Assembly: GCA_049510745.1 (NCBI GenBank)
Contig: JBEKYR010000001.1
Location: 96,001 to 160,000, forward strand
DNA: 64,000 bases
From: Verrucomicrobiota bacterium
GTDB lineage: Bacteria > Verrucomicrobiota > Verrucomicrobiia > Limisphaerales > Palsa-1400
Direction: 5' to 3'
The notes under the pieces are model-generated. The model saw nothing but the letters and a program-made list of their open reading frames with translations, ran no database searches and was not told the DNA's origin. Shown here piece after piece: positions 45,784-61,923 of this stretch. Position 1 is the stretch's first letter. The number at the start of each line of letters is the position of its first letter. The position numbers were made by a program, and so were the translations under genes.

Positions 45784-47124
45784 ATGATGCGTAACATTAT
45801 CTTGACAGCAATGGCGCTGGGCTGCGCGGCCGGCTTGCGGGCCGACGATTGGCCGCAGTGGCTTGGGCCGGAGCGGGACAGCATTTGGCGCGAGACCGGA
45901 ATAGTCAGCTCGTTTCCCGCCGGCGGACCGCCGGTGGTGTGGCGGGCGGAAATCGGCTCCGGTTATTCCGGCCCCGCCGTGGCCCAAGGGCGGGTATATG
46001 TCTTCGATCACCAGTTTGCCAAGCCGTCGGACAAACCGGCGGACCCGATGTCCCACGCGACCATCCCCGGCGCCGAGCGGATTCTTTGCCTGAACGCGGC
46101 CGACGGGAAAATCCTGTGGCGGCACGAATACGATTGCCCCTACACCACCAGCTTCCCGGCCGGCCCGCGCACCACGCCCCTGGTCAGCGGGGACAAAGTC
46201 TTCTCGCTCGGAGCCGAAGGCAATTTGTGCTGCCTGGAAGCGGCGACGGGAAACGTCGTGTGGTCGCGGGATTTCAAGGCGGACTATAAAATCAAGACGC
46301 CGCTGTGGGGCTTTGCAGGAAACCCGCTCCTGGACGGGAACAAGCTGATTTGCCTGGCCGGCGGCTCCAACTCGACGGTGGTCGCGTTGGATAAGAACAC
46401 CGGCAAGGAAATCTGGCGGGCGTTGAGCGCCAAGGAGCCGGGGTATTGTTCCCCCGTGATTTTTCAGGCGGGCGGCGTCCGGCAACTGATTGTCTGGCAT
46501 CCGGAATCGCTCAACTCGCTGGACCCGGAGACGGGCCGGGTTTATTGGACCTTGAAATCGTCGCAGCCCATTCGCGCCGGCATGACGATCCCGACGCCGC
46601 GCAAGATGGACGATTTGCTGTTTGTGACTTGCTTCTACAACGGCTCGTGGATGCTGCGGCTGGACGCCGCCAAGCCGGCGGCCGCCACGGTTTGGCAAAG
46701 CCAGCGCGTGAGCGAGCAGAACACCGACGCGCTGCATTCGACCTTGAGCACGCCGTTCCTCCAGGACGGATATATTTACGGTGTTTGCAGCTACGGACAA
46801 TTGCGCTGTCTCAACGCCGCCACCGGCGAGCGGGTTTGGGAGACGCTCAGCGCGACCACGGCCGACGGCAAGGAAACGCGCTGGGCCAACGCCTTCATTG
46901 TCAAGAATCAGGACCGTTTCTTCCTGTTCAATGAAAAGGGCGATTTGATCATCGCCAGGCTGACTCCGAAAGGCTGCGAGGAGATCAGCCGGGCGCACGT
47001 CATTGAGCCGGTCAACCGCGATGCGGGCCGTCTGGTGGTGTGGTCTCATCCCGCCTTTGCCAACCGCCGGATGTACGCGAGAAACGACAACGAGATCGTC
47101 TGCGTGGATTTGGCCCAAAAATGA
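45784..47124 (+). CDS. PQQ-binding-like beta-propeller protein (BamB-like), secreted
   Basis: DDWPQWLGP, CLxAxxGxxxW blades, GPRTTP, WSHPAFAN. Confidence 0.9.
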   Translation: MMRNIILTAMALGCAAGLRADDWPQWLGPERDSIWRETGIVSSFPAGGPPVVWRAEIGSGYSGPAVAQGRVYVFDHQFAKPSDKPADPMSHATIPGAERILCLNAADGKILWRHEYDCPYTTSFPAGPRTTPLVSGDKVFSLGAEGNLCCLEAATGNVVWSRDFKADYKIKTPLWGFAGNPLLDGNKLICLAGGSNSTVVALDKNTGKEIWRALSAKEPGYCSPVIFQAGGVRQLIVWHPESLNSLDPETGRVYWTLKSSQPIRAGMTIPTPRKMDDLLFVTCFYNGSWMLRLDAAKPAAATVWQSQRVSEQNTDALHSTLSTPFLQDGYIYGVCSYGQLRCLNAATGERVWETLSATTADGKETRWANAFIVKNQDRFFLFNEKGDLIIARLTPKGCEEISRAHVIEPVNRDAGRLVVWSHPAFANRRMYARNDNEIVCVDLAQK

Positions 47125-47270
47125 GCGGCCGGCCTTGGGCAAGCCTGCTGATTTGGCGCCAAATGATTGCGCAACACGTTCAGAATCAGACCAAAGATGG
47201 GTTCGCCGTCGGGATCGGTTGCTGACGCCCGCACCTTCAGACACCCCCCTCCCCCCCCTGTTGTGGGGTT

Positions 47271-47307
47271 TGATTTAGTCTGATTTAGTCTGATTTGGTT
47301 TGATTTT
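47271..47307. repeat. 10-bp tandem array, about 4 units (TGATTTAGTC)
   Basis: tgatttagtc tgatttagtc tgatttggtt tgatttt. Confidence 0.85.
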
Positions 47308-47418
47308 CCTTGACGGAAACCTGCTGGAGGGGGCCGGACCGGCAAAATCTGCCGGTTAAGGCCGCCTGGAGTCTGGTCCCGCGGCGGACGGGCAGGAGAA
47401 CTCCCCGGCGACGCCGCG

Positions 47419-47479
47419 TTATGTCAAACAGCGCGTGTCCGCACGGCTGGAAAAATGACACAGTTTTGTGAAGTTTCAA
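47419..47479 (-). promoter_or_regulatory. Candidate sigma70 promoter + hairpin + boxA-like motif (copy 2)
   Basis: Minus strand: TTGAAA-16 bp-CATTTT with TG extension, then CGTG-CGGA-CACG and CGCTGTTTGACATAA, identical to copy 1. Confidence 0.5.
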
Positions 47480-47645
47480 GTATTTTGTTGCTTTTTTGGA
47501 TTTTTTTGCAGAGTGCGGAACAACGCAAAGAGCAAAAGACGCGAAGGCGCCAAGAGAAGCTGAGAACTTCTTGCGGTGCAATATCCCAAAATCGCTCATT
47601 TCTGAGAAAACCTTCTCACCACGAAGCACGCGAAGAGAAACCTAA

Positions 47646-47750
47646 AAGTTTCTTACCACGGATTTCGCGGATTTTCACGGATGGAAAACCCGTCGCTTCT
47701 TATCCCCACGCGCCAGCGTCTTCCCGATAATTTGTTCATCTCTGCAATCC
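47646..47750 (-). repeat. Inverted copy of the 32931-33072 repeat, lacking its internal module
   Basis: Direct sequence comparison. Confidence 0.9.
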
Positions 47751-48059
47751 GAAAAACGCCTTGTCATCAAGCCCGGAACGCGCGCGCGTGAGCGAATCCC
47801 GAATCATTAGCGATGTGGTTGCGGACTCACCCAATAGGTGGGCCAGTTTCGGACGAAAGATTCCGTCGGCGGGACAGCAGAACAAATCGTCGGGCTGACA
47901 AGTGAACAAATTGTTGGGCTGACGCTTGCGCGTGGGCTGGCGCGTGGGCCGACGGATGCGGTCGGGACGACCGCGCTCCCGGAAAAGTCGCTAATGATCG
48001 GGGTGTCCTAGGGAATGGGGGGCTTGTCGTTTTCACGCGGTGCGGTTATGGTTGAAGAG

Positions 48060-48293
48060 ATGAACGAACTATTGTCCCGCATCACGATTGATCCGGAGAT
48101 TTGCCACGGCAAACCGGCCATCCGCCACTTGCGGTATCCGGTGGAGTCCATGTTGGAATATCTGGCGGCAGGCGACACGTTTGAGGATTTGCTGGGCGAA
48201 TTCCCTGATCTGGAACGCGACGATTTGCGAGCGTGTCTGGAATTCGCCGCGCAATCGCTCAAGCTTAAAAGCCAGCATCTGGCGCTGACATGA
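48060..48293 (+). CDS. DUF433-family antitoxin
   Basis: RITIDPEICHGKPAIRHLRYPVE...LAAG...FPDLERDDLRACLEFAA. Confidence 0.92.
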   Translation: MNELLSRITIDPEICHGKPAIRHLRYPVESMLEYLAAGDTFEDLLGEFPDLERDDLRACLEFAAQSLKLKSQHLALT

Positions 48294-48643
48294 GATTCGT
48301 GGTGGACGCGCACTTGCCGCCCGGTTTGTGTGCCCTGCTCAAGGCGGCGGGGCACGATGCGATTCACACCAGCCGGTTGCCTGCGCAAAACCGGACGCCG
48401 GACGAAGTTCTCAATGAACTTTCGCTCCAGGAACAGCGCGTGGTCGTCACGAAAGATTTGGATTTTTATCATTCGCATTTGCTGCATGGCAGGCCTTGGA
48501 AACTGCTGCTCGTGCGCACGGGGAACATTCGCAGCCGCGATCTCAAAGCGCTGTTTCAAACCCATTTGTCCGCCATCCTCACCGCGCTGGAACAAAACTC
48601 GCTTGTCGAACTCGACCGCCAAAAGGTGCAGGTCATTGTGTGA
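48290..48643 (+). CDS. DUF5615/VapC45-like PIN toxin
   Basis: ATGA overlap. MRFVVDAHLP...GHDAIH...TPDE...RVVVTKDLDF...RTGN. Confidence 0.9.
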   Translation: MRFVVDAHLPPGLCALLKAAGHDAIHTSRLPAQNRTPDEVLNELSLQEQRVVVTKDLDFYHSHLLHGRPWKLLLVRTGNIRSRDLKALFQTHLSAILTALEQNSLVELDRQKVQVIV

Positions 48644-48849
48644 CGCCGAGCAAAGCTGCAAACGAGTCCCACATATCCTCGCATGAAGGGTCAAGCCCGG
48701 AATGCGGAATTATAATTCCGGAAGTGCGGTGGTCTCACAAGGAGCGATCAATTTCGACAGAGGTTCAACCCAAAAATCGGCATGGCAATACGGTTTGGCG
48801 GAGGAGGACGAATGGGACCAATGGGACGGATATGGACAGGCAAGACGGG

Positions 48850-48872
48850 GATTACGATTACGATTACGATTG
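48850..48872. repeat. GATTAC short tandem repeat
   Basis: gattacgattacgattacgattg. Confidence 0.8.
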
Positions 48873-48900
48873 AGAAAAGGACGAACGGGACAGACGGGAA

Positions 48901-48945
48901 GGCGAGCCAGCCGTTGGTGTCCAGGAAAACGACGTTATCCGGCAT
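48901..48945 (-). pseudogene. Truncated VapC/PIN toxin (first about 15 codons only)
   Basis: MPDNVVFLDTNGWLA overlaps the upstream antitoxin-like gene, then runs into low-complexity repeats. Confidence 0.7.
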
Positions 48946-49171
48946 GGTTTACTTTCGGATGTCCGTAGAGGTAATGATCCGCATTGGTGGCCAGATCGGG
49001 AATGCCGGTCTCGACTGCTTGCTCGCCCATCCGAAAAGGACCGCATTCACCCGCCACTATGCCGTGGCCGCCAGGCTCCTCGGTTTGGACGTGAACGGGG
49101 GCGCCGTCCGGGAGGGTCGCTCCTGGTTCCAGCATCACCACATTGCCTTTGACTGTTCCGCGGTAAATCAT
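48935..49171 (-). CDS. Antitoxin-like protein (AF2212/DUF104-like N-terminus)
   Basis: MIYRGTVKGNVVMLEPGATLPDGAPVHV...GIPDLATNADHYLYG. Lies directly upstream of a PIN start. Confidence 0.75.
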   Translation of the reverse strand: MIYRGTVKGNVVMLEPGATLPDGAPVHVQTEEPGGHGIVAGECGPFRMGEQAVETGIPDLATNADHYLYGHPKVNHAG

Positions 49172-49354
49172 GATGTCAGTATCCGCACCTTCATCTAATT
49201 TCGCTCCGAGGCATTCGGCGCAAACTGTCAATGCTCATGTTCGTAAAGCTGCCGTACTGCGTGGAAACAAGCAAGCTCGGAGCGGAATCCCAAATCCTAA
49301 CGCGGCCTTACCGCCGAGCGATGACCTGTACAATTTGGATGGGAGAGCGAAGAA

Positions 49355-49402
49355 GCGGTCGGCGAGGGCGCCGACCGCAGCACGCGGGGCGCGTGCGCTC
49401 CC
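49355..49402 (+). repeat. REP-like double-hairpin element
   Basis: gcggtcggcg-aggg-cgccgaccgc then gcacgcg-ggg-cgcgtgc-gctccc. Confidence 0.75.
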
Positions 49403-49561
49403 GAAAGTCAGCGTTCAACGCGGAAGCGTAAAATGATCGCCCGCCTTGGACCCTGTGCCTCCAAACGCACAGGGGCAAGGGACCGCGAAGCGGGACAAAA
49501 GTTGAGTCTTTTGCCGCCTCCCCCTGTCTCAAAACCTGTCCAGCACTGTCGTAATAAGCCA

Positions 49562-49589
49562 TTGCAAATGAGAAAAATCATCGTAACCT
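49562..49589 (+). promoter_or_regulatory. Candidate sigma70 promoter of the SPFH/ATPase/ABC operon
   Basis: TTGCAA-16 bp-TAACCT, about 40 bp upstream of the ATG at 49629. Confidence 0.45.
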
Positions 49590-49628
49590 GTGCGTCGCTT
49601 CCGGCAGCCCAGTCTGCCTGAGAGCACC

Positions 49629-50591
49629 ATGCGACAATTTATTACAATCGCCGGAAATGCCTTTATGGAGCTGATCCGGCAGCCGGTTTTCCTGCTGCTG
49701 ATGACGGTTTCGTCGTTGTTTGAGGTGTTCCTGGCTTGCGTCAATTATTTCGGATTCGGGGACGAACCGAAGCTGGTCAAGAACAGCGCCCTAGCGGTGA
49801 TGCTCCTGGCCGGGCTGTTTGGGGCGGTGTTGAGCGCGTCGGCCTCGGTCGCGCGCGAAATCCGCAGCGGGACCGCCCTGGCCGTGCTGGCCAAACCGGT
49901 CAGCCGCGCCCAATTCCTGCTGGCCAAATACGCCGGTCTCGCTTTGGCGCTGGCTGTTCTGACTTTCGTCAACACCATCGCCGCCCTGCTGGCCACGCGC
50001 ATGGCTTTTGACGCATATGGCGACATCGATTATCCGGGGTTGAGTGTTTTTTGCGGCGCGCTGGTTTTGGGCTATGTCATCGCCGGGTTCAGCAATTTCT
50101 TCCTGCGGCGGCCGTTTGTTTCGGACGCGGTTTTCGCCGTGGTGGTGATGGCGGTGGTAGCCTTTGCGGTGTTGCAGTATATTCCGCGGGAAGCCGGGCG
50201 AATGGGGATGGATTACAAGGGAATCGATTGGCGGGTGATTCCCGCCTCGGCCTTGATCTGGATGGCGCTGCTGATCCTGGCGGCGCTGGCCCTGGCGTGC
50301 TCGACGCGGGTGGAAATGGTGCCGACGCTGGCGATATGTTCAGCCTTGTTTTTGATGGGGTTGGTGTCCGATTATTTCTGGGGGACGCGCGCCAAGGCCG
50401 GCACGTGGTGGGCTTCGGTGCTTTACGCCGTGACGCCGAATTGGCAATTGTTCTGGCTGGCGGACGCGCTGGAGGGGACCAACAAGATACCGTTGGGCTA
50501 TCTGGGCCGGGCGTTTGGCTATGCGTGCGCGTATATCGGGGCGATCCTGGCGCTGGCGCTGGCCTTGTTTGAGGATCGCGAACTGAGTTGA
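49629..50591 (+). CDS. ABC-2-type transporter permease (PilI/NosY-like)
   Basis: IAGNAFMELIRQP, AREIRSGTALAVLAKPVSRAQFLLAKYAG, multiple TMs, C-terminal FEDREL. Confidence 0.88.
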   Translation: MRQFITIAGNAFMELIRQPVFLLLMTVSSLFEVFLACVNYFGFGDEPKLVKNSALAVMLLAGLFGAVLSASASVAREIRSGTALAVLAKPVSRAQFLLAKYAGLALALAVLTFVNTIAALLATRMAFDAYGDIDYPGLSVFCGALVLGYVIAGFSNFFLRRPFVSDAVFAVVVMAVVAFAVLQYIPREAGRMGMDYKGIDWRVIPASALIWMALLILAALALACSTRVEMVPTLAICSALFLMGLVSDYFWGTRAKAGTWWASVLYAVTPNWQLFWLADALEGTNKIPLGYLGRAFGYACAYIGAILALALALFEDRELS

Positions 50592-52471
50592 TGATAAGAA
50601 TGGAATCCAACGCCAAAAGAATTGGTTTGATGAACTGGATCGTCCTGCTGGGGGCGACGATCGGGATGCTGCTGGTGGCGCGCTTCGTCAGTTCGAGCGC
50701 GGCAGTGATGGCCACGGTGCTGACGGGATTCGGGCTGCTGGTGGGATTGTTGAGCTATTTCCACATGGGGTTGGTGGAGCGGGAACAGTTCGAGCGGATG
50801 GAAGTGGAGGAATTGAGCAAGGCACGCGGGAGCCAATCGCTCTTTGCGACCGCGGCGGCAGACACGTTTCCGGCCAAGCGCTCGCGGGAACAGTTCGAGC
50901 GGTTTATCGTCCCGGGTTTCACCGGGCTGCTGTTCCTGGCGCAAGGATGGGCCGCCTATTGGCCTTGGGAAAAGCTCCCGGCCATGCCCGCCCTGGCGGC
51001 TGATCGGGCGACGCTGGCCATGGCGTTGTTGGGGTTGTTCGGTCTGATCCTTTTTCTGCTGGGCAAATACTCCAGCGGGCTGGCCCGTCTGCAAAACCAG
51101 AAGTTGTTGCGTCCGGGCGCGGCCTATTTGCTGCTCAGCGCCTACGCCTGCTTTACCGCGACCTGCGCCATTGCCGCCGTCCTGGCGGGTTTTCCCAGGG
51201 CCGACCTTTTCGTCGGACGCGCCTTGTGCGTCATATCGGGATTGGCGGCGGTGGAAACGCTGCTGGCGTTGATCCTGGAGGTCTATCGCGTGCGGGTGCA
51301 GGGGCGGGACGCGCGATTGCTCTATGAAAGCCGGCTGGTGGGATTGCTGGGCCAGCCGGAAGCGATCATCACGACCGCCGCGCACGCGCTGGATTACCAA
51401 TTTGGCTTCAAGGTGTCCGAGACGTGGTTTTATCGTTTTCTGGAAAAGGCGCTGGGCTGGCTGGTGCTGGCGCAATTGGGCGCATTGGTGGCATCGACCT
51501 GCTTTGTCATCATCCAGCCGGGCGACCAGGCGTTGCTGGAGCGTTTTGGCCGGCCATTGGGCAACCAGGGCGTGATCGGACCCGGCTTGCATCTCAAACT
51601 GCCCTGGCCGATCGACCGCACCATCGTTTATCACACCGAGCAAATCCAAACTTTCATCGTCGGCGCCGAACCGGAAAGGAGCGAGACGATTGCCTGGGCT
51701 GTGAGCCACGCCAAAGAGGAGAATTTCCTGGTGGCGAGCAAGGAATTGAATCCGGAGATTCAATCCAACCAAATGACGGAGGCGAAAAGCCCGCCGGTCA
51801 ACCTGCTTTCGGTCAGCATCCCGGTGCAATATCAGATCACCAATCTGGCCACCTGGGCCTACACCAACGAAGACCCGCAAACGCTCCTCAAAGGCATCTC
51901 CGAGCGCGAGGTGGCCCGCTATCTGGCCAGCGCCGACCTGGATGATTTGATGTCGCGCGGACGGGCCGCCGCCGCCGAGAGCCTGCGCCGAAACATCCAG
52001 GGGCAGGTGGACACCCTGCAATTGGGGGCGCGCGTGACTTTTGTCGGCTTGGAAGACATCCATCCGCCGGTCAAGGTGGCGAAGATTTTTGAACAGGTGG
52101 TGGGGGCGGCGCAGACCCGGGATTCGAAGATATTGCAGGCGCAGGCCTATGCGGTCTCGACCAACGCTTTCGCCAGCGGAGAAAGTTTCAAGAGGGTGGC
52201 CACAGCCAACGCCGACGAGCACAGCGCGGTGACCAATTCCGCCGCCCGGGCCGTGCTCTTTGCCAGCCAGCAAATGGCTTACAGCGCCGCGCCAGGCCGC
52301 AACGGCGTCTATGAGCAGCGCGCCTACCTGGAAACCCTCGTCGAGGGCGGCAGCCAGTCGCGCAAGTACATCATTGCCACCACCAACACGCCGGACATCC
52401 TCATTTTCAATCTGGAGGACAAAATACGGACAGATTTGATCGACAAGCTCCCGTCGCCGACTCAAAAGTGA
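50591..52471 (+). CDS. HflK-like SPFH protein with a large multi-pass N-terminal membrane domain
   Basis: About 7-8 TM segments in the first 300 aa, then IQPGDQALLERFG...PGLHLKLPWPID, VQYQI, DIHPPVKVAKIFEQV. Start may be 50600. Confidence 0.88.
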   Translation: MIRMESNAKRIGLMNWIVLLGATIGMLLVARFVSSSAAVMATVLTGFGLLVGLLSYFHMGLVEREQFERMEVEELSKARGSQSLFATAAADTFPAKRSREQFERFIVPGFTGLLFLAQGWAAYWPWEKLPAMPALAADRATLAMALLGLFGLILFLLGKYSSGLARLQNQKLLRPGAAYLLLSAYACFTATCAIAAVLAGFPRADLFVGRALCVISGLAAVETLLALILEVYRVRVQGRDARLLYESRLVGLLGQPEAIITTAAHALDYQFGFKVSETWFYRFLEKALGWLVLAQLGALVASTCFVIIQPGDQALLERFGRPLGNQGVIGPGLHLKLPWPIDRTIVYHTEQIQTFIVGAEPERSETIAWAVSHAKEENFLVASKELNPEIQSNQMTEAKSPPVNLLSVSIPVQYQITNLATWAYTNEDPQTLLKGISEREVARYLASADLDDLMSRGRAAAAESLRRNIQGQVDTLQLGARVTFVGLEDIHPPVKVAKIFEQVVGAAQTRDSKILQAQAYAVSTNAFASGESFKRVATANADEHSAVTNSAARAVLFASQQMAYSAAPGRNGVYEQRAYLETLVEGGSQSRKYIIATTNTPDILIFNLEDKIRTDLIDKLPSPTQK

Positions 52472-52472
52472 T

Positions 52473-53432
52473 ATGAAACGAAATCCCCTTACCCTGTTAG
52501 TGGCCTTCATCTTGATCGTCATCTTCGGCTTGCTCCTGTTTATTTACCAGGTGCGCAAATCCGAGGCGGCGGTGGTGACACGATTCGGCAAGATCGACCG
52601 CGTCAAGACCGAGCCTGGCCCCGGCCTGCGCTGGCCCTGGCCGATCGAAGACGTCTATAAGCTGGACCAGCGCATCCAGAACTTCGAGGGCAAGTACGAG
52701 CAATTCAAGCTGCCCGACCAGAACATCATCCTCTTGTCGGTCTATGTCGGCTACCGCATCGAGGACCCGAAGGCGTTCTTCCCCAAGTTCGCCAAAGGGT
52801 CGATTCCCGAGGCGGAAAAGGTGCTGGAAGACTTGGTGCGCAGCGCCAAGAATGAAGTGGCCGGACAGCATCCCTTCTCGGATTTCGTGGCGACCGATGA
52901 ACGGCAGATGAAATTCACCCAGATCGAAAACGAAATCCTGCAAAAAGTGCGCAAACAAGTGACCGAGCTGAACTACGGGCTGGACATGAAGTTCATCCAG
53001 ATCAGGAAAATCGGGCTGCCCGACAGCGTGACGCAAAACGTCTTCGACCGCATGACATCCGAGCGGCAGTACTACATCTCCAAGGTCCAGTCGCAGGGCG
53101 AGGAGGCGGCGAAAAAGATCAAATCCGAAGCCGACAGCAAGGCCGCCATCCTGCTGGCCGACGCCGACGCCCAGGCCTTCAAAATCCGGGGCGAAGGCGA
53201 GGCGCAGATGATGAAATCGCTGGCGGTGTTGCAGGAGAATCCGGCGCTGGCCACGTTCAACATGCAGATTTCCGCGTTGCAGCAATTGCTCAGGGAAAAA
53301 TCGACCCTCGTGCTCGATGCCAGCAGTTCCCCGTTGCAGTGGCTCCAGATGCAGCAAGCGGGCAAATCCGCCCCGACCAATGCCGCTTCCCCGGCTGAGG
53401 CCGGCTCGCTGACGAATAAAGACCCGAAATGA
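52473..53432 (+). CDS. hflC: HflC-like SPFH protein
   Basis: Single N-terminal TM, AVVTRFGK...EPG...WPWPIEDV..LDQRI, LPDSVTQNVFDRMTSER, IRGEGEA. Confidence 0.88.
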   Translation: MKRNPLTLLVAFILIVIFGLLLFIYQVRKSEAAVVTRFGKIDRVKTEPGPGLRWPWPIEDVYKLDQRIQNFEGKYEQFKLPDQNIILLSVYVGYRIEDPKAFFPKFAKGSIPEAEKVLEDLVRSAKNEVAGQHPFSDFVATDERQMKFTQIENEILQKVRKQVTELNYGLDMKFIQIRKIGLPDSVTQNVFDRMTSERQYYISKVQSQGEEAAKKIKSEADSKAAILLADADAQAFKIRGEGEAQMMKSLAVLQENPALATFNMQISALQQLLREKSTLVLDASSSPLQWLQMQQAGKSAPTNAASPAEAGSLTNKDPK

Positions 53433-54538
53433 ACCCCCAGGACCCCATTCTGCCCTCGCCGCCGCCGAGCGCGCCGCCCCCGCCCCCGCCGGGTCCGCCG
53501 CCGGCTGTGGAAGACGCCGGAACGCAGGCGCTGGCCGAAGCCCTGCGCAGCAGCTTTTTCATTGTCAAGATCATTATGGTGGGGCTGGCGCTGGTCTTCC
53601 TTGGCTCGGGCTTTTTCACCGTCGGTCCGCAAGAGAAAGCGGTCATCCTGCGCCTGGGCAAGCCGATCGGGGAAGGCGAGGGCGCGCTGCTCAGTCCGGG
53701 TTTGCACTGGGCCTTTCCCCGGGGCATTTATGAAGTCGAACACATTCCGTTCACCTCCCTGCAAATGGCCGAGTCGTCCGTCGGCTGGTACCTGACGCCC
53801 GAAGAGCGCGCCAAAGGAGCCGCCCCGCCGCCCGGCTCGTCCTCGCTCAATCCGGCCACCACCACCTACGCATTGACGGCCGACACCAACATCATTCACG
53901 TCGTGGCGACCCTGAAATACCGGATCACCGACCCGATTACCTTCCATTTTGATTTTGCCAACGCGCCGTCTTTCATCACCAACGCCCTGAACAACGCCTT
54001 GCTGTTTGCCACCAGCCAGTTTCCAGTCGATGACATCCTGACGCGAAACCGGGCCGCCTTCCGGGAACGGGTCACGGAACGGGCCCGTCAATTGATTGAC
54101 TCGCAAAAAATCGGAGTGACGGTGGATCAATTGGATGTCGATGCCTCGCCCCCGCTCTATCTCAAGCCCAAGTTTGACGAAGTCGATACGGCCATGCTCA
54201 AACGCGACAAAGCCCGCAACGACGCGCAGAGCTACGCGACCACCACCGAGGCGGAAGCCCGCGGCGAGTCCGCCACGCGCGTCTTTGTCGCGGATGCCCA
54301 GCGCAAACGGCTGGTGGAAATGGTGACCGCGCAAGCCGACACCTTCCAGAAACTGCGGGGCCAATACGAGCATGACCCGGCGTTTTTCGAGCGCGTCCGC
54401 CAGATGACGGTGCTGGAGGAGGTTTATACCAATGCCCAGCAAAAGATCATCATGGCGCCGAACACGCATGAGTTGCGCCTGGAATTGAGCCGCGAGCCGG
54501 AGGCGCCTTCCACGAATAACATCATCATGTCGCAATAA
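53429..54538 (+). CDS. hflK: HflK-like SPFH protein
   Basis: SGFFTVGPQEKAVILRLGK, PGLHW, ALTADTNII, YRITDP, PP...FDEV, AEARGES, QYEHDP. Confidence 0.85.
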   Translation: MNPQDPILPSPPPSAPPPPPPGPPPAVEDAGTQALAEALRSSFFIVKIIMVGLALVFLGSGFFTVGPQEKAVILRLGKPIGEGEGALLSPGLHWAFPRGIYEVEHIPFTSLQMAESSVGWYLTPEERAKGAAPPPGSSSLNPATTTYALTADTNIIHVVATLKYRITDPITFHFDFANAPSFITNALNNALLFATSQFPVDDILTRNRAAFRERVTERARQLIDSQKIGVTVDQLDVDASPPLYLKPKFDEVDTAMLKRDKARNDAQSYATTTEAEARGESATRVFVADAQRKRLVEMVTAQADTFQKLRGQYEHDPAFFERVRQMTVLEEVYTNAQQKIIMAPNTHELRLELSREPEAPSTNNIIMSQ

Positions 54539-54542
54539 TTTT

Positions 54543-56609
54543 ATGCAAGTGACCTCTCTCCTGAGCCGCCGCGAAGACGAGCATGACCACGCGCACGGGG
54601 AATCGTGCGCCAATGGCGGCCACGACCACGACCACGCCGTGCTGCCGCTGGCGCAAACGTTGATTGGCCTGGTCTTTGTCCTCAATTCGTTTGTCGTCAA
54701 CTGGTTCTTTTCCGACAACGCCAACCCGATCGCGGACGGCAGCGCGATGATCGGGGCGATCATCCTCGGCTACCCGATTGTCTGGACGGCCATCAATGAT
54801 TTGCGCCGGGGTCTGCTCACGACCAACGAACTGGTGGCCCTGGCCGTGGTGGCTTCCTTTGGCTCGGCGAATCTCCTGGTGGTTTCCTTTGGCTCGGCGA
54901 ATGTCCAAGTGGGCGGCTACCAGCAGGCGGGCGTCATCGCCTTCTTCATGTTGATGGGCCAAATCATTGAAACGCGCACGGCCGAAGGCGCCCGCGCTTC
55001 CATCGAATCCCTCATCAAGCTCACTCCGCCCAAAGCCCGCCGCGTCACCAAAGACGGCGAAGAGGAGATCGAAACGAAGCTCCTCGCCGTGGGCGACGTT
55101 ATTCGAGTTCGTCCCGGAGACAATGTCGCGGCCGACGGGGTGATTGTGACCGGCCAGGGTTCCTTCAATCAGGCCACCATCACCGGCGAGTCCTTGCCGG
55201 TCGATAAAAAGCCCGGGGACGAAGTCTTTGCCGGGACGCAAAACCTGACGGGAGCGCTGGAAATCCGGGTGACGCGGGCGGGGCAGGACACGACGTTGGG
55301 CAAGGTGCGGGAACTGATCCTGGCGGCGGAGAAAACCAAGCTGCCGCTGATGCGGATCATCGACCAGTACATGGGCTATTATACGCCGCTGGTGCTGCTG
55401 ATCGGCGCATTGGTGTGGGCGTTCACCTCCGATATGAGCCGCGTGATCACGGTCCTTATTGTCTCGTGTCCGTGCGCTTTCATTCTCGCCACACCCAGCG
55501 CGATGGTCGCGGCCCTGTCGGCCGCCGCGCGGCTGGGCATCCTAATCAAAAACGTCGGCGACATCGAGTTGGCGGCGCGCATCAACGCATTTGTATTTGA
55601 CAAAACGGGCACTCTCACCACGGGACGGCTGGCCGTCAGCCGCCTTCAGCCCATGAACGGCGCGACGGCGGCGGAACTGCTCCGCGTGGCGGGTTCGGCC
55701 GAGAAATACAGCAACCATCCCACGGCCAAGGCGCTGGCCCAGTTGGCGGGCGAAGCCGGCGTGCCCCTTTGCGAGCCGAAGGATTTCGCCGAAGCCGCCG
55801 GCCGGGGCGTCAGCGCGCAGGTCGAAGGGGCCAGGGTGCTGGTGGGCCGCGCCCAGTGGCTCAAGGAACAAGGCATCGCGGAGGATTTTCTCAAATCCGT
55901 CGATCTCAATGAAACGGAGGGTTTCAGCCTGATCTTCGTGGCCCGCGACGGCAAATGCCTCGGGTGGGTCGGCCTGCAAGACCAAACCCGCTCCGAAGCC
56001 CGCGAGGCGCTGGCCGATCTGAAATCCACCGGCGTGCGCCGCATCGCCATGATTTCCGGCGACCGCCAGCCGGTGGCCACCCGCGTCGCGCGCGAAATCG
56101 GCTGCGAAGAAGTCATGGGCGAATGCCTCCCGCAGAACAAAGTGGATTTTGTCCGCCAAATAAAAGCCAAAGGCTACCGCGTGGCTGTCGTCGGCGACGG
56201 CGTCAACGACGCGCCCGCGCTGGCGGCCGGCGACCTGGGCATCGCCATGGGCGCGGCGGGCAGCGAAGTGGCCATCCACAGCGCCACCATCGCGCTGATG
56301 AACAACGATCTGCGCCGCCTGCCGTTCCTGGTCCGGCTCTCGCGCCAGACGCGGTCGGTCATCAACCAGAATTTCCTTGTCGGCATTGTGTTTGTCATCG
56401 GCGGCCTGGTTTTGGCCTCGCTCAAGTACATCAATCCGATCACCGCCGCCGTCCTCCACGTCATCGGTTCGCTCATTGTTGTCTTCAACAGCGCCCGGCT
56501 CGTGCGGCAGGGCGAGGAGTTGGAACCGCACCTGGCCGCCGCGCCGGAAGCGCCCGGCCCATCGGCGCCAACCCCGCCGTCTCTGACGCCCAAAGCTGTG
56601 CCTGCATGA
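54543..56609 (+). CDS. P1B-type (heavy-metal) P-type ATPase
   Basis: His-rich N-terminus, TGESLP, SCPCA, FDKTGTLT, HP, GDGVNDAPAL. Confidence 0.95.
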   Translation: MQVTSLLSRREDEHDHAHGESCANGGHDHDHAVLPLAQTLIGLVFVLNSFVVNWFFSDNANPIADGSAMIGAIILGYPIVWTAINDLRRGLLTTNELVALAVVASFGSANLLVVSFGSANVQVGGYQQAGVIAFFMLMGQIIETRTAEGARASIESLIKLTPPKARRVTKDGEEEIETKLLAVGDVIRVRPGDNVAADGVIVTGQGSFNQATITGESLPVDKKPGDEVFAGTQNLTGALEIRVTRAGQDTTLGKVRELILAAEKTKLPLMRIIDQYMGYYTPLVLLIGALVWAFTSDMSRVITVLIVSCPCAFILATPSAMVAALSAAARLGILIKNVGDIELAARINAFVFDKTGTLTTGRLAVSRLQPMNGATAAELLRVAGSAEKYSNHPTAKALAQLAGEAGVPLCEPKDFAEAAGRGVSAQVEGARVLVGRAQWLKEQGIAEDFLKSVDLNETEGFSLIFVARDGKCLGWVGLQDQTRSEAREALADLKSTGVRRIAMISGDRQPVATRVAREIGCEEVMGECLPQNKVDFVRQIKAKGYRVAVVGDGVNDAPALAAGDLGIAMGAAGSEVAIHSATIALMNNDLRRLPFLVRLSRQTRSVINQNFLVGIVFVIGGLVLASLKYINPITAAVLHVIGSLIVVFNSARLVRQGEELEPHLAAAPEAPGPSAPTPPSLTPKAVPA
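54847..54906 (+). repeat. In-frame 30-bp tandem duplication inside the ATPase gene
   Basis: tggtggcttcctttggctcggcgaatctcc / tggtggtttcctttggctcggcgaatgtcc (28/30 identical). Confidence 0.92.
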
Positions 56610-57823
56610 GTGCTGTCGCTCAAATCCCCGCGACCGCCGCGCCCGCGCCCGAAATGCCCCGTTCCGGCGAGCCGGTGGTCGCCGTGCGCGGATTGACCAA
56701 AATTTTCAAGGACTTCTGGGGCCGCCCCAAGGCCAAAGCCGTCGATAACGTCGATTTTGAAGTGCGGCGCGGCGAGGTCTTCGGCCTGCTGGGCCCCAAC
56801 GGTTCCGGCAAATCGACCACGGTCAAGCTGCTGCTCGGATTGCTCTATCCGACCCGCGGCCACATCGAAGTCTTCGGCCATTCCCCGCGCCACGTGGCGA
56901 GCAAGGCGCACATCGGCTACTTGCCAGAGGAATCCTACCTTTATCGCTTTTTGGATTCGCGCGAAACGCTCGACTTTTTCGGCAACCTTTTTGATTTGCC
57001 CGCCGGGCAGCGCCGCCAGCGCAACGAACAGCTTTTGGAAATGGTCGGCTTGAGCCAGGTGCGCACGCGGGTGGTCGGCGAGTTTTCCAAGGGGATGCAG
57101 CGGCGCATCGGACTGGCCCAGGCGCTGATCAACGATCCCGACCTGGTCCTGCTGGACGAGCCGACCGCCGGCATGGACCCCATTGGCTGCCGCGAAGTCA
57201 AGGACCTGATCCTCGCCCTGGCGCGCCGGGGCAAAACGGTCATTCTCAGCAGCCATTTGCTCTCCGAAGTCGAGGATGTCTGCGACCGTGTCGTCATCTA
57301 TTATGGCGGACGCATTCACGCCATGGGCACCTTGAAGGAATTGCTCACCAAGCCGGACTCCGTGCGCATTACCACGCCGCTGCTGCCGCGCGAGAGCATG
57401 GAACAGGTCCTGAACATCATTCGCAAGGACGTGGGGGAGGAGAAAATTCAGATCGACAACCCGACGCAAAACCTGGAGAGCTATTTCCTGGATGTCGTGC
57501 GCCAGGCAAAGGAGCGTCTGGAGGAAACTTCCGGCGCCACTTCCGGCAGCCACGTCGCCGCCTACCTGCGCGGCGACGCGGAATCCGAGCCGACGACGGA
57601 CAAGGTCCTGGAACGGCTGACCCATGCGGCCGCGGCCAAGCCGGCGGAACCCGCGCCCGCACCCGAACCCCAGCAGAAGATCGACCAGGCCAAACTGGAA
57701 TCGTTGGCCAAGCCCGCCGAGCCTGCGGCCCCGCCGCCGCCGCCGCCGCCGGCGCCCCCGGTCGATTTGGACAAAGCCAACCAGAAGCTCTCCTCGCTGC
57801 TGGGCCATCCGGGCGAGAAATGA
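56606..57823 (+). CDS. ABC transporter ATP-binding protein with a Pro-rich C-terminal extension
   Basis: ATGA overlap with the ATPase stop. GPNGSGKS, FSKGMQRR, LLDEP, SSH. Confidence 0.94.
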   Translation: MSAVAQIPATAAPAPEMPRSGEPVVAVRGLTKIFKDFWGRPKAKAVDNVDFEVRRGEVFGLLGPNGSGKSTTVKLLLGLLYPTRGHIEVFGHSPRHVASKAHIGYLPEESYLYRFLDSRETLDFFGNLFDLPAGQRRQRNEQLLEMVGLSQVRTRVVGEFSKGMQRRIGLAQALINDPDLVLLDEPTAGMDPIGCREVKDLILALARRGKTVILSSHLLSEVEDVCDRVVIYYGGRIHAMGTLKELLTKPDSVRITTPLLPRESMEQVLNIIRKDVGEEKIQIDNPTQNLESYFLDVVRQAKERLEETSGATSGSHVAAYLRGDAESEPTTDKVLERLTHAAAAKPAEPAPAPEPQQKIDQAKLESLAKPAEPAAPPPPPPPAPPVDLDKANQKLSSLLGHPGEK

Positions 57824-59199
57824 AGAAAGTCCTGGCCATCGCGGGATTGACTTGGAAATCCGCCTTCCGCTACCGCCTCTTCTGGATCCTGGCCGCGCTG
57901 CTGCTCGGAGCGGTCGTGGGCCTGCCGCTGCTGCTCAGAGACGACGGCACAGCCAAGGGGCTGACCCAAATACTATTGACTTACACCTTGAGCGCGGTGG
58001 CAACGCTCCTGGGCATTGCCACCCTCTGGCTCTCCTGCGGCACCCTGGCCAAGGACGTCGAGGAATGCCAGATGCAGGTCGTCGCGGTCAAGCCCATCGC
58101 CCGCTGGCAAATCTGGCTCGGCAAGTGGCTCGGCCTGCTTTCCCTCAACGCCGTCCTGCTGGCCCTGGCCGGCGCCGCCATTTTTGCCCTGCTCAATTGG
58201 CGGGCCGGCCGCCTTCCCGCCGCCGAGCAAAAAATCCTCCGCGACGAGGTTTTTGTGGCGCGCGCCTCGGTGCGGGACCGTCCGCCGGACTTTTCCGCCG
58301 AAGTTGAAAAACTCATGCGAGAACGGGTCAAAGACCCCGCGGCGTTAAGCGCGTCCGACCTGGCGGAAATCCGCAAGCAAGTCAGCGAGGAACTCAAGTC
58401 CGCCTTGACGGAAGTGCCGCCGGGTTTCCGGCGGCGCTGGGGCGTCAACTTGCGGAGCGTGCGCGACCGCTTGCGGGATCAACCGCTGGAGTTGCGGGTC
58501 AAATTCCACACCGCCAACCCCAACGAGGACGCCCGCTACCTGACCGGCTGGATCGTCGGCCCGGCCAACTCTCCCCGGCAGGTGGCCATTGAGCAGACGT
58601 TGCCGCCGGATTCCTTCCAGGAATTCCAAGTGCCCGCCAATCTGCTGGACGACAAGGGCATCCTGTGGGTCGATGTGGTGAACCCCAATGAAACGTCCCT
58701 GACGTTTCCGTTGGAGGATGGATTCGAGCTGCTCTATCCGGAGAGCACATTCGAGATCAATTTTGTGCGCGGGATCGCGGTCATTTTCTGCTGGCTGGCC
58801 CTGCTGGCCTCGATTGGCCTGGCCATGGCCAGTTTCCTTTCCTTCCCCGTGGCGGCGTTTGCCTCGCTGGCGCTGCTGCTCATGGGCTTCTCCAGCGGCA
58901 CTATCGGCTCGGTGGTCGAGCAAGGCACGATCATGAGCTACGACTCGGCCAAGTCGGCTTACGGCCATTCGCCGATCGATGTGGTCATTGTGCCGGTGTT
59001 CCAGGGGGCGCTGAAAATCATCAAGCTGGTCGAGAGTTTTTCGCCGGTCGATTTTCTCAGCACGGGCCGGAGCATCACGTGGGGCCAATTGGGATTGGCG
59101 GTGGCGCAAATCATCCTGTTGCTGGGCGGGTTTTTCTGCGTCGTGGGCATTATCCTATTCACCCGGAGAGAATTGGCCACCGCGCAGGGCAATAGTTGA
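57820..59199 (+). CDS. ABC-2-type transporter permease with a large soluble insert
   Basis: ATGA overlap. LAKDVEECQMQVVAVKPIARWQIWLGKWLG, about 160-aa hydrophilic domain, C-terminal FTRRELA. Confidence 0.86.
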   Translation: MKKVLAIAGLTWKSAFRYRLFWILAALLLGAVVGLPLLLRDDGTAKGLTQILLTYTLSAVATLLGIATLWLSCGTLAKDVEECQMQVVAVKPIARWQIWLGKWLGLLSLNAVLLALAGAAIFALLNWRAGRLPAAEQKILRDEVFVARASVRDRPPDFSAEVEKLMRERVKDPAALSASDLAEIRKQVSEELKSALTEVPPGFRRRWGVNLRSVRDRLRDQPLELRVKFHTANPNEDARYLTGWIVGPANSPRQVAIEQTLPPDSFQEFQVPANLLDDKGILWVDVVNPNETSLTFPLEDGFELLYPESTFEINFVRGIAVIFCWLALLASIGLAMASFLSFPVAAFASLALLLMGFSSGTIGSVVEQGTIMSYDSAKSAYGHSPIDVVIVPVFQGALKIIKLVESFSPVDFLSTGRSITWGQLGLAVAQIILLLGGFFCVVGIILFTRRELATAQGNS

Positions 59200-59201
59200 G
59201 G

Positions 59202-59630
59202 TCATTCGGCGAACCGGGCCAGTTCGCGCCAGTTCCCGCGCAATCGATCCAGCAAGCGCGCGTCGGCGGCGGGGAATTCGTAGTTGAAAAGGTCCGCCGC
59301 GGTGACCCATGCCAGGTCCTGGCCCGCGGGCGTTTGTGGCTCGTGCCGCAGCCAGCGGCAACGGAAGAAGCGCAGATGCACCGAGCGGTCGGGATACTCA
59401 TGGGTGAGCGCTTCCACCAGATCGTGGACTTGCACCTCGATGCCCAATTCCTCGGCCAGTTCGCGCCGCAAACATTGCTCGTAGGATTCGCCGGGTTCGC
59501 GCTTGCCGCCGGGGAATTCCCACAAACCGCCCAGGTGCGCCCGGGGCGGACGGCGGGCAATGAGCAATTTTCCATCGCGGAAGACCAGAGCCGCCGCCAC
59601 TTCGATCGTGCTCCCGCCCGCGCCGGTCAC
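59202..59630 (-). CDS. mutT: Nudix hydrolase, MutT/NudG-like
   Basis: WEFPGGKREPGESYEQCLRRELAEELG, FPAAD. Confidence 0.85.
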   Translation of the reverse strand: MTGAGGSTIEVAAALVFRDGKLLIARRPPRAHLGGLWEFPGGKREPGESYEQCLRRELAEELGIEVQVHDLVEALTHEYPDRSVHLRFFRCRWLRHEPQTPAGQDLAWVTAADLFNYEFPAADARLLDRLRGNWRELARFAE

Positions 59631-60925
59631 GCCTTCCCCCGACCGATGCTCTTGTAGAGGAAGCCCAGACGCTCCATTTCCTCGAAGTCAAATAGATTTC
59701 GGCCGTCGAAGATAATGGGGTGGGTCAGGCCCTTTCTGGCCCGCTCCAGGTCCAGGCGCTTGAACTGGGGCCACTCGGTGGCGATGACCAGGGCGTCGCA
59801 GCCTTCCGCCACATCATCCATGTCCGCCACGTACTGCGCGTCCGGGAGCACGGGTTTGGCCTTTTCCATGGCCTGGGGATCATGGACGCGCAGGCGCGCC
59901 CCCTCTTTGAGCAGGCGCTGGCACAGTTCGATGGCGGGGGACATCCGCACGTCGTCCGTGTTCTGCTTGAAGGCCAGACCGAGGACGCCGATGGTCTTGC
60001 CCTTGAGGACCCAGAGGGTGTCGGAAATTTTCTTGACAAAGCGGTTCATCTGCTCGGCGTTGATGCGCTGCACCTCCTCCAGCAGGCCGAAGCGGCAGCC
60101 CAGCGCCTCGGAAATGCGGATGAAGGCGCTCAAGTCCTTGGGGAAGCAACTCCCGCCAAAGCCGAGCGAGGCGTCCAAAAACTTGCGGCCGATGCGGGCG
60201 TCCATCCCCATGCCGTTGGCCACCTCTTGGACGTTGGCGCCCGATTTTTCGCACAGGACGGAAATGGCGTTGATGTAGGAGATTTTCAGGGCCAGGAACG
60301 AGTTGGCGGCGTGCTTGATCAGCTCCGCCGAATTGATGTCGGTGACGATGACGGGGGCCTGGTAGGGGGCGTAAACCTCCTTCATCGCCGCCACCGGACG
60401 CGGCGACAAGACCCCGATGACGACGCGGTCCGGCTTCATGAAATCCTCGACGGCAAAGCCCTCGCGCAAGAACTCCGGGTTGCTCACGACGTCAAACTCC
60501 ACCTGGGCCTTGCGATAGCGTTTGATGGTCTCGGCCACCTTTTCCCCCGTCTTGACCGGGACGGTGCTTTTGTCAACTATAATCTTGTAGGCCGTCATGG
60601 CGCCGGCAATCTCGCGCGAGACGCCTTCGATGAAACTCAAATCCACCGAGCCGTCCGGCTGCGGGGGCGTGGGCACGGCGATGAAGACCACGTCGGACTG
60701 ATCGACCCCTTCCCGGGTGCTGGCGGTAAAACGCAAGCGGCCGGCGGCGGTGTTCTTTTTCACCAATTCGGGCAGGCCCGGTTCGTAAATGGGCATGCCG
60801 CCCGCCTGGAGGAGCTTGACCTTTTCGACGTCCTTGTCCACGCAGATGACATGATGGCCGGCCTCGGCGAAACAAGTGCCTGTGACCAGCCCCACATAGC
60901 CGGTTCCAATAATGGTCAGGTTCAT
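59627..60925 (-). CDS. ugd: UDP-glucose 6-dehydrogenase
   Basis: IIGTGYVGL, KSTVPV, SNPEFLREG, GFGGSCFPKD, LAFKQNTDDVR, DGRN. Confidence 0.95.
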   Translation of the reverse strand: MNLTIIGTGYVGLVTGTCFAEAGHHVICVDKDVEKVKLLQAGGMPIYEPGLPELVKKNTAAGRLRFTASTREGVDQSDVVFIAVPTPPQPDGSVDLSFIEGVSREIAGAMTAYKIIVDKSTVPVKTGEKVAETIKRYRKAQVEFDVVSNPEFLREGFAVEDFMKPDRVVIGVLSPRPVAAMKEVYAPYQAPVIVTDINSAELIKHAANSFLALKISYINAISVLCEKSGANVQEVANGMGMDARIGRKFLDASLGFGGSCFPKDLSAFIRISEALGCRFGLLEEVQRINAEQMNRFVKKISDTLWVLKGKTIGVLGLAFKQNTDDVRMSPAIELCQRLLKEGARLRVHDPQAMEKAKPVLPDAQYVADMDDVAEGCDALVIATEWPQFKRLDLERARKGLTHPIIFDGRNLFDFEEMERLGFLYKSIGRGKA

Positions 60926-61800
60926 CGAGGCGCGGAATTGGACGAGACAGGCGGAATGGTCAGGAGATTGATGCCGGAATTGGGGGTGGCCGGGTTTGGC
61001 TTGGGCTGGGCAGGGGCAGGCCCCTTGGAAGCGGAGGCGGCGGGCGGCAAGGGCACCTTGACGGTGGGCTGGGAGAGGGAGAAAGGGGCCGGAGCGGGAG
61101 CGGCCTCCGCCTTGCGCAATTCGGGATGTTTGGCGACCAGAAGCTGGCCGCGCTCGCGGGCTTCGGCGGCCCAAGGGTCGTAGGGGTTTTGAATGCGGGC
61201 CAGCTCGGAGTAGAAGGTCAGGGCCTGCTGCGGTTTGTTTTCCTCCTCAAAAAGGCGGGCGAGAGTCAATTTGGCCGGGGTCACGATGTTCAGATCGGAA
61301 GGAAAAGCCGAAATGAGTTCCTGGTATTTTTGAATGGCCTCGGAATTCCTGCCCTGCGCCTCGACGGAGGCCGCCACGCCCATTCTGGCTTGGGCAATCA
61401 GGGCGCTGTCGGGATGGTCGCTGAGGAACTTGGAGAACTGCTCCTGAGCCTCCGGGTATCTGCCCTCCGTGAACAAGGTTTCGGCCCCGAACAATTCGGC
61501 GTATTCGCCGGCGGGGGTATTGGGATACTGGCGGGCCAGATCGAGCAAAGGCCCCGGGGAAACCGGCGCGGAGCGCGCGGCCATCCCGACCGGGGTCGGG
61601 ACGGCAAAAAGCTGGGCATTGGCGCTGGCCTCATCGGCGGCCTTTTTCCAGGAAACCAGGCCCCACGCCAGGGCGATGACGGCGACAACGATGGCCCCGA
61701 TGATAACTCGCTTGCGGTTGGCGTGGACCCAGGCCACCAGTCTGAAAAACACATCCGCCGACTGCGCCGACGGCGTTGACTGCGTTGTTTGAACATCCAT
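60922..61800 (-). CDS. Membrane-anchored tetratricopeptide repeat protein (YfgM-like)
   Basis: N-terminal TM, TPR-like helices (YPNTPAG..., GRYPEAQEQF, ARMGVAASVE), Pro-rich tail. Start chosen at MDVQTT. Confidence 0.8.
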   Translation of the reverse strand: MDVQTTQSTPSAQSADVFFRLVAWVHANRKRVIIGAIVVAVIALAWGLVSWKKAADEASANAQLFAVPTPVGMAARSAPVSPGPLLDLARQYPNTPAGEYAELFGAETLFTEGRYPEAQEQFSKFLSDHPDSALIAQARMGVAASVEAQGRNSEAIQKYQELISAFPSDLNIVTPAKLTLARLFEEENKPQQALTFYSELARIQNPYDPWAAEARERGQLLVAKHPELRKAEAAPAPAPFSLSQPTVKVPLPPAASASKGPAPAQPKPNPATPNSGINLLTIPPVSSNSAPR

Positions 61801-61923
61801 ATAAAGGGCGGGCATTGTCATCGGAACCCCGGAAAACGCAAGCTTAAATCGCATGCAATTCAAAGCGGCATCCAAAGATTCGAGGGCTTCTGGTTTCGCG
61901 CAAAATCCGGAATATGTTTCAGA

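Follow-up and report, generated by a model that had tools for sequence, protein, structure and literature searches.

A conserved verrucomicrobial operon in which three HflK/HflC-type genes and a P1B-type ATPase form a cassette within a NosY-type ABC transporter operon

Seven tightly packed plus-strand open reading frames (ORFs), here g1 to g7, occupy positions 49629-59199 of a 64,000-nucleotide stretch of a Verrucomicrobiota genome (class Verrucomicrobiia, order Limisphaerales, family Palsa-1400; GenBank assembly GCA_049510745.1, contig JBEKYR010000001.1, positions 96,001 to 160,000; hereafter the window), and make up an operon of two separable modules. Module A (g2-g5) consists of a long HflK-type gene, an HflC-type gene, a second HflK-type gene and a P1B-type pump, and is a cassette inserted between g1 and g6 of module B, a four-part NosY-fold ATP-binding cassette (ABC) system formed by g1, g6, g7 and an eighth gene, which in the source genome is unlinked and lies on contig C34. 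The operon likely encodes an envelope machine that would deliver metal to exported surface proteins. Taken as a whole, the proposed chain, in which a cage of SPFH proteins surrounds the pump, whose divalent metal is passed on to the exported clients of the ABC arm, is put at slightly short of an even chance, and the narrower reading of a cage plus a pump, taken alone, is considered probable.

The initial annotation had described a seven-gene plus-strand operon in this order, with every junction an overlap or a gap of at most 4 base pairs (bp) and without ftsH, and this layout was borne out in full: the junctions from g1/g2 to g6/g7 were re-measured as -4, +1, -4, +4, -4 and -4 bp, the g2 start in the first of these being a TTG with alternative ATG codons at 50591 and 50600, and the FtsH genes of the genome lie on contigs C3 and C13. 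Features that this annotation had overlooked are the eighth gene, the CDF fold of g2, and the promoter-like element and palindrome upstream of g1. By profile, g1 and g7 are, weakly, ABC-2 permeases, g2 to g4 SPFH proteins, g5 a P1B ATPase and g6 an ABC ATPase. The first gene, g1 (49629-50591; 320 amino acids; PF12730, 31.1 bits), encodes an ABC-2/NosY-type permease with approximately eight hydrophobic segments and a weak reciprocal profile match to g7. The product of g2 (K1; 50588-52471; 623-627 amino acids, with the start at 50600 or 50588) has approximately seven membrane helices and an SPFH domain, and is modelled as an N-terminal domain of the CDF/YiiP fold, a seventh helix, and an HflK-type SPFH domain with a coiled coil. 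It is followed by the single-pass HflC-like g3 (C; 52473-53432; 319 amino acids; PF01145, 84.9 bits) and the single-pass HflK-like g4 (K2; 53429-54538; 369 amino acids, with a proline-rich N-terminus; PF01145, 61.7 bits). The P1B-type ATPase g5 (54543-56609; 688 amino acids) has a His-rich N-terminus and scores 542.6 bits on TIGR01525 (cut-off 346), and the ABC ATPase g6 (56606-57823; 405 amino acids; PF00005, 112.9 bits) carries a low-complexity C-terminal tail, conserves its Walker A, signature and H-loop motifs, and falls below the cut-offs of the DrrA and GldA models. The last gene, g7 (57820-59199; 459 amino acids), encodes by its model a second NosY-fold permease with a jelly-roll insert.

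Synteny across the operon is deeply conserved. An orthologue of g3 was found in 40/40 relatives, and the 38 orthologous loci in 37 of these comprise 28 with all seven genes in order, six cut by contig ends and four broken; a scan of the genome collection gave 80 loci, overlapping the former set, of which 47 are complete, 28 are cut, four stop after g5 and one has no g5 match. When the loci are pooled, the order g1-g7 is kept in 78 of the 79 that hold all seven genes, and the eighth gene, encoding approximately 500 amino acids with one membrane anchor, follows g7 in 64 loci. Within a 150-genome sample of the class, full-length g2 was present in 22/22 members of the source order and 5/128 other genomes, with five more genomes carrying a second, ABC-less type of g2. 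Full-type g2 and a g7 orthologue occurred together in 26 of these 150 genomes, g2 alone in one (at a contig break) and g7 alone in none. In a 200-genome sample of the phylum, with thresholds for pump and g7 that were chosen after inspection of the scores, 74 genomes had the main-type pump, 98 had a g7 orthologue and 72 had both. In two genomes (G033, loci L033 and L036; G110, loci L067 and L068) the cassette is present twice, in divergent versions of which only one is followed by the ABC genes.

The separability of the modules is seen from both sides. Where module A is absent the ABC genes often close up, in the arrangement g1-g6-g7(-g8) with g1 directly before g6 at 7/20 cassette-less loci, and module A is therefore regarded as an inserted cassette. 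The block g2-g3-g4-g5 also occurs without ABC genes on four plasmids, of Rhizobium, Burkholderia, Klebsiella and Paraburkholderia, and no match to g7 was found among plasmids. Across genomes g6-g7 or g8 is often unlinked from the cassette. On the Paraburkholderia sprentiae plasmid, a gene for a PCu(A)C copper chaperone lies just upstream of the four-gene cluster (L222:1286-1735).

Module A belongs to the hmtA type of gene cluster, having the order long HflK, HflC, HflK, P1B ATPase and common ancestry of all four genes with such clusters. In quick LG+G4 trees, midpoint-rooted and built from hand-chosen rows of which some are long or compositionally odd, g3, g4 and g2 cluster with proteobacterial trio proteins (SH-like approximate likelihood ratio support 98, 97 and 91) and apart from E. 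coli-type HflK and HflC, and 26/26 trio-linked pumps fall on one side of a branch with support 100. In Pseudomonas aeruginosa the locus PA2439-PA2434 holds three HflK/C-family genes plus hmtA (PA2435) in the same order as g2-g5 (PMC4542158), and on this gene order g2-g5 would be orthologous to PA2439-PA2435; Pseudomonas records were absent from the 11 plasmid matches and from the best 120 of 197 homologues listed. In the available sections of the papers cited here and below, PA2437-2439 (HflC/HflK families) and hmtA are reported to be induced 5- to 14-fold when zinc is depleted (PMC4542158), proteins of the locus to increase under the same condition (PMC11761036), Zur to shift the PA2439 promoter (PMC8531726), and HmtA is classed in a review as an importer of Cu/Zn (PMC8456098). 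The locus is probably the paFlo5-7 operon of strain PA14, a three-SPFH operon whose deletion gives approximately 20% less biofilm, in a species that has canonical hflKC as well as the trio (PMC13086221); the available sections of PMC2636767 mention neither an ATPase nor a metal.

This zinc response, together with the occurrence of each module alone, the closed-up cassette-less loci and the frequent unlinking of g6-g7 or g8, including that of g8 in the source genome, would be accounted for if the operon held two independent systems, an hmtA-type cassette for metal homeostasis, such as zinc scavenging, having entered a pilin-associated ABC operon, with which it is co-inherited without a shared pathway. 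Such an arrangement is considered somewhat unlikely, given that the nested order, with neighbouring genes overlapping by a few bases, has persisted in several classes, and that genomes of the class retain or lose the two modules jointly, also where these are unlinked.

All three SPFH products carry PF01145, the domain following a membrane helix and being followed by a coiled coil, and their best NCBIfam models are those for HflK (TIGR01933, cut-off 159.4) and HflC (TIGR01932, cut-off 134.4), with g2, g3 and g4 scoring 114.6, 115.4 and 127.3 against cut-offs of 159.4, 134.4 and 159.4, respectively. The trio is thus distinct from canonical HflK and HflC both by score and by its position apart from the E. 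coli-type branches, but a separate canonical hflKC was not found in the genome. This assembly (94% complete) encodes FtsH on contig C3 (810 bits) and a shorter second copy on C13, and its five other SPFH matches score at most 73 bits on the HflK/C profiles versus 150-245 for canonical members. Since the trio is the only HflK/C-type set of the genome, its products could still bind FtsH, and since E. coli hflKC is likewise not adjacent to ftsH, the lack of ftsH in the operon says little.

A possible explanation for these observations is that the trio is simply the functional HflK/C of this lineage, caging FtsH for membrane-protein quality control, with the pump and ABC genes being co-regulated neighbours or substrates. 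The near-universal, housekeeping-like distribution in the order (22/22) and the best structural match of the SPFH part of g2, E. coli HflK (7vhp, Z score 17.1), are in keeping with this. It is nevertheless rather improbable, as P. aeruginosa has the trio in addition to a canonical hflKC, two order-level relatives (L042 and L043) also hold an E. coli-type pair, 25 genomes without the trio retain the ABC arm, and the CDF-fold domain of g2 is absent from canonical HflK. His-rich loops in the SPFH domains were seen in a minority of rows (22/156, 11/156 and 21/151), and the idea of a metal-binding lining of the cage was dropped.

The N-terminal domain of g2 (approximately 50600-51304) has the fold of a metal transporter. 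In a predicted model with a mean predicted local distance difference test (pLDDT) score of 88.6, this domain has the six-helix CDF fold, matching YiiP (8f6k; Z 20.8, root-mean-square deviation (rmsd) 2.9, 201 aligned) and SLC30A10 (Z 15.7). It had no match to PF01545, and in profile-profile comparison it reached CDF at E 0.0015, with controls at 0.075-0.12. The sequence bridge is a CDF::HflK fusion on an Aquibium plasmid (WP_072608301.1, annotated as HflK; L220:2861-4408), which sits in a K1-C-K2-P1B cluster, scores 89 bits on PF01545 and retains both HxxxD sites intact; the g2 N-domain profile matches it in register (E 6.6e-6) and also matches the long HflK of the proteobacterial plasmid clusters. 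Among 68 rows, site A in helix 5 of g2 has a His in two and Gly, Ser or Ala at the Asp position, and neither the helix-2 metal site nor the cytoplasmic C-terminal domain of CDF proteins is present. By model and alignment, the domain appears to be a pseudo-transporter that has lost its metal site, and is a candidate adaptor of this kind. Foldseek alone missed both this match and that of g7 to NosY, and an Atlas search with the g2 N-domain gave matches at 0.82 only.

Fusions of the P1B::HflK type, followed by C and K2, were found in 4/20 loci fetched (among L197-L200 and L241), and some of the genomes in question also have the seven-gene type. Such a fusion is only a parallel to g2 and g5, because the fused pumps are of another lineage. 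Other long HflK proteins (frames of 549-779 amino acids; L238, L239 and L240) have N-terminal regions matching neither the CDF nor the P1B profile, and no longer fused forms of g4 were found among 8000 candidates in a weak search. A cage built for a transporter fits these data, because HflK-type subunits are covalently fused to metal transporters elsewhere. Complex prediction with residues 22-662 of the pump and 1-300 of g2 scored 0.00 twice, and, being without controls, weighs neither way.

The pump itself has the DKTGT, TGE and GDGxND motifs, the HP motif, a proline with Cys in helix M4 and the eight-helix architecture of P1B ATPases. Helix M4 carries CPC and M6 a His, and M5 is hydrophobic without a Lys or Tyr-Asn ligand. 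Pumps of the ZntA type (P1B-2) have Lys in M5 and Asp in M6, and those of the CopA type (P1B-1) Tyr-Asn in M5 and Met in M6, in agreement with the control rows of the alignment, where these usual residues are kept; both assignments were accordingly rejected for g5, which is predicted from its residues to be an active P1B ATPase outside the two types. An Atlas search with g5 returned generic P1B clusters only. Among 124 orthologues DKTGT and TGE are each kept in 123, CPC in 110 and the M6 His in 115, and at least five His residues occur in the N-terminal stretch of 95/125 rows.

These figures bear on a further alternative, namely that g5 has drifted away from transporting metal and now powers an envelope machine that moves lipids or proteins, with the pseudo-CDF domain as its scaffold. 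Replacement of CPC and the M6 His in some orthologues that keep DKTGT and TGE, the absence of a metal ligand in M5, the loss of the CDF site in nearly all of the 68 rows, and the type V ABC fold of g7, a class that includes lipid movers, could all be read in this way. The retention of CPC, the M6 His and the His-rich N-terminus in most rows argues against drift, as do the ties of related clusters to metal, namely the zinc response in P. aeruginosa and the PCu(A)C neighbour, and this alternative is judged improbable.

In module B, the model of g7 (pLDDT 86.4) is closest to NosY (7o0y_D; Z 20.7, rmsd 4.2, 248 aligned), with a jelly-roll insert at residues of approximately 146-310 that is extracytoplasmic and matches sandwiches of the carbohydrate-binding-module type at Z of approximately 8. 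A NosY-type (type V) permease with a cognate ABC ATPase is thus present in g7, by its model, and g6, with g1 assigned by sequence. In the source genome the eighth gene (C34:25010-26488; L167:7011-8492) encodes 493 amino acids with an N-terminal anchor, lies downstream of a Sel1-repeat gene, and matched no family in Pfam or NCBIfam. From predicted topology, the SPFH domains, the g7 insert and the eighth protein would all face the periplasm. A paralogous three-gene set at C43:1112-3484 encodes an ABC ATPase, a NosY-like permease and an anchored TPR-like protein, to which the likeness of the eighth protein was not significant genome-wide. NosFY has a mechanical role, moving or remodelling an envelope protein. 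A plasmid of Ca. Manganitrophus carries homologues of g1, g6, g7 and the eighth gene (114, 359, 53 and 106 bits) in a pilus-gene cluster, directly after a prepilin gene, with SPFH and pump genes absent within 30 kb. In Myxococcus, the formation of pili depends on the ABC set PilGHI (PMC3724824).

A link to pilin-like proteins is also found upstream of the operon. At 49454-49471 lies the palindrome TGTGC-N8-GCACA with a conserved (C/A)AAAC centre, which was identified from motif counts: among 104 distinct regions upstream of g1, 27 contain it exactly, against 0.05 in shuffled sequences, and 40 do so with one mismatch allowed; no spacer of 6, 7 or 9 occurs there. The pattern so derived was then searched genome-wide in 31 genomes, where 19 exact copies occurred in seven and the reversed control gave none; the source genome has three exact copies against zero in its shuffled counterpart, and four genomes of the same family have none. 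These 19 copies precede g1 (two), prepilin-type genes (nine), genes for long proteins with signal-like starts as judged by eye (four), a conserved gene (two), and nothing found (two). The 9/17 non-g1 copies before prepilin-type genes compare with a background of 12/3000 (0.4%). In the source genome, which has 60 frames bearing a prepilin motif, one copy lies before a prepilin-type gene (C5:186876) and another, with a second degenerate copy, before a glycine-rich exported protein of more than 1038 amino acids (C6:3187). Two palindrome-linked prepilins score 18.7 and 16.8 on TIGR04294 (H-X9-DG; cut-off 19), and since these are just below cut-off the H-X9-DG label is only a lead. The conserved gene, of approximately 270-290 amino acids and located downstream of the palindrome in two genomes that belong to separate families (L278 and L279), is a candidate regulon member or regulator.

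Judged by its distribution in sequence, the palindrome is likely a regulator-binding site, or alternatively a stem-loop; it had no match to a known regulator, and neither a Fur/Zur gene nor a corresponding box was found at the operon locus. Between it and g1, on the plus strand at 49562-49589, motif counts also revealed a promoter-like element, TTGCAA-N16-TAACCT (overlapping CGTAAC) with AATAA before it, present in 64/108 upstream regions versus 3.1 in shuffled ones, and in relaxed form in 79/110 versus 5.4. A strict scan for sigma-70 promoters and terminators gave nothing above shuffled sequences and missed this element, and Rfam models at the gathering threshold had no match in window 47000-60000.

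From these components the following mechanism is proposed. The products of g2, g3 and g4 would very probably co-assemble into an HflK/C-like ring with its SPFH domains in the periplasm, as the CDF fold and the single-helix anchors suggest. The client of this ring would probably be the pump rather than, or besides, FtsH, with the ligand-less CDF domain of g2 docking or spacing it without transport. It is likewise probable that g5 would actively pump a divalent transition metal, whether inward or outward, with CPC and the M6 His making Zn, Co or Mn likelier than Cu+. The ABC machine would have g1 and g7 as its membrane-embedded subunits and g6 as its motor, with the product of the unlinked eighth gene as a partner in the periplasm, and this arm would move or remodel an envelope protein in the manner of NosFY rather than export small solutes, with the palindrome-sharing prepilin-type and exported proteins as clients; that both of these steps hold is about evenly balanced. 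Pilin-like and exported clients are proposed because the operon shares its upstream element with prepilin-type genes. That a single pathway unites the cage, the pump and the ABC arm is a tentative step and somewhat doubtful. A more specific form is a periplasmic metallation chamber, in which the cage, docked on the pump through the dead CDF domain, would load metal onto the large family of pilin-like (H-X9-DG-type) proteins and onto exported proteins, both handed over by the ABC motor and the anchored helical-repeat protein, all under one regulator. This is unlikely; if true, it would make a transporter the client of an SPFH cage and would show how an unexplained family of pilin-like proteins matures.

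Several observations weigh against the metal-delivery reading. With respect to shared function, 26/98 phylum genomes with g7 have no main pump, no full-length g2 was found in any of 25 such genomes that were searched, the proteobacterial and second-type clusters carry no ABC genes, and the co-occurrence counts overstate the association, because kin are not independent. With respect to the cage and pump, the genome has FtsH and no HflK/C-type genes beyond the trio, the pumps of the P1B::HflK fusions are of a lineage different from g5, zinc did not repress hmtA mRNA in P. aeruginosa (PMC8531726), and the strict metal site is not always retained, CPC being changed in 14/124 g5 orthologues and the M6 His in seven. 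With respect to the clients, most g1 upstream regions are without the palindrome, as are, in its exact form, 24/31 genomes, and prepilin motifs occur in the flanks of only 5/136 cluster loci. The proposal of the initial annotation, that an SPFH cage may scaffold a metal pump and an ABC exporter instead of FtsH, is borne out in part. It is supported for the metal pump by the deep synteny, by trio and pump lineages of their own that travel together into Proteobacteria, and by the CDF::HflK and P1B::HflK fusions, whereas a place for the ABC transporter in the cage finds no such support, each module also occurring without the other.

Upstream of the operon, at window 48060-48643, a short ORF is followed by a DUF5615/PIN-like gene (PF18480), likely a toxin-antitoxin pair. 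Downstream, at 59202-61875 on the minus strand, convergent genes for a NUDIX hydrolase, a nucleotide-sugar dehydrogenase-like protein and a TPR protein abut the operon end, in a neighbourhood that is not conserved.

The roles of most bacterial SPFH rings besides caging FtsH are stated as unclear (PMC12005517, PMC13086221). A ring genetically tied to one pump clade, along with fusions to other metal transporters, offers a putative cage-plus-transporter complex that is testable by cryo-electron microscopy, and the idea extends to the triple mutant available in P. aeruginosa, on which no metal assay is reported in the available sections of the source. The shared upstream element gives a first clue to what the verrucomicrobial version does, and to the function of the many prepilin-type genes in these genomes.

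Compared with known systems, the operon shares SPFH and coiled-coil subunits of the HflK and HflC types with the E. coli HflK/HflC-FtsH cage (PDB 7vhp, 7wi3 and 9cz2), but has three subunits rather than two, one of them with a CDF-fold domain, on separate tree branches, under the NCBIfam cut-offs and without hfq-hflX context. The g2 N-domain shares the six-helix fold of CDF/YiiP/ZnT transporters, to which the Aquibium fusion connects it in sequence, but has no HxxxD site in helix 5 or 2 and no cytoplasmic CDF domain. With NosFY (NosDFY) and PilGHI, the operon shares an ATPase, a NosY-type permease and an anchored helical protein; it differs in that its two permeases are unlike, only one bearing a jelly-roll insert, and in having neither NosD nor nosZ, and PilGHI is a published analogue of the ABC arm by context (pilus cluster, shared element), not by sequence comparison. 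A scaffold for a P1B pump has a precedent in the mycobacterial PacL-P1B ATPase metal efflux platforms, where a scaffold is likewise encoded with the pump and proposed to assemble it in membrane foci; PacL, however, is a single-pass cytoplasmic chaperone and not an SPFH protein, and its foci form without flotillin (PMC9374683). The hmtA-type clusters of Proteobacteria have the same gene order and group with the window genes in trees, but were seen without ABC genes or the eighth protein and are patchy in Proteobacteria, whereas the operon is near-universal in the source order; a cage-pump mechanism is not described in the available sections of the papers on the P. aeruginosa locus. The combination had initially been taken to be undescribed, and this holds for the nested SPFH-pump-ABC system, of which, as of a CDF::HflK fusion, the literature search found no description, but not wholly for the four-gene core, which is in print as the zinc-starvation-responsive PA2439-PA2434. 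The component families and, without a mechanism, the core locus in P. aeruginosa were therefore known, and what is new is the demonstration of the cassette, the promoter-like element and the pilin-linked palindrome.

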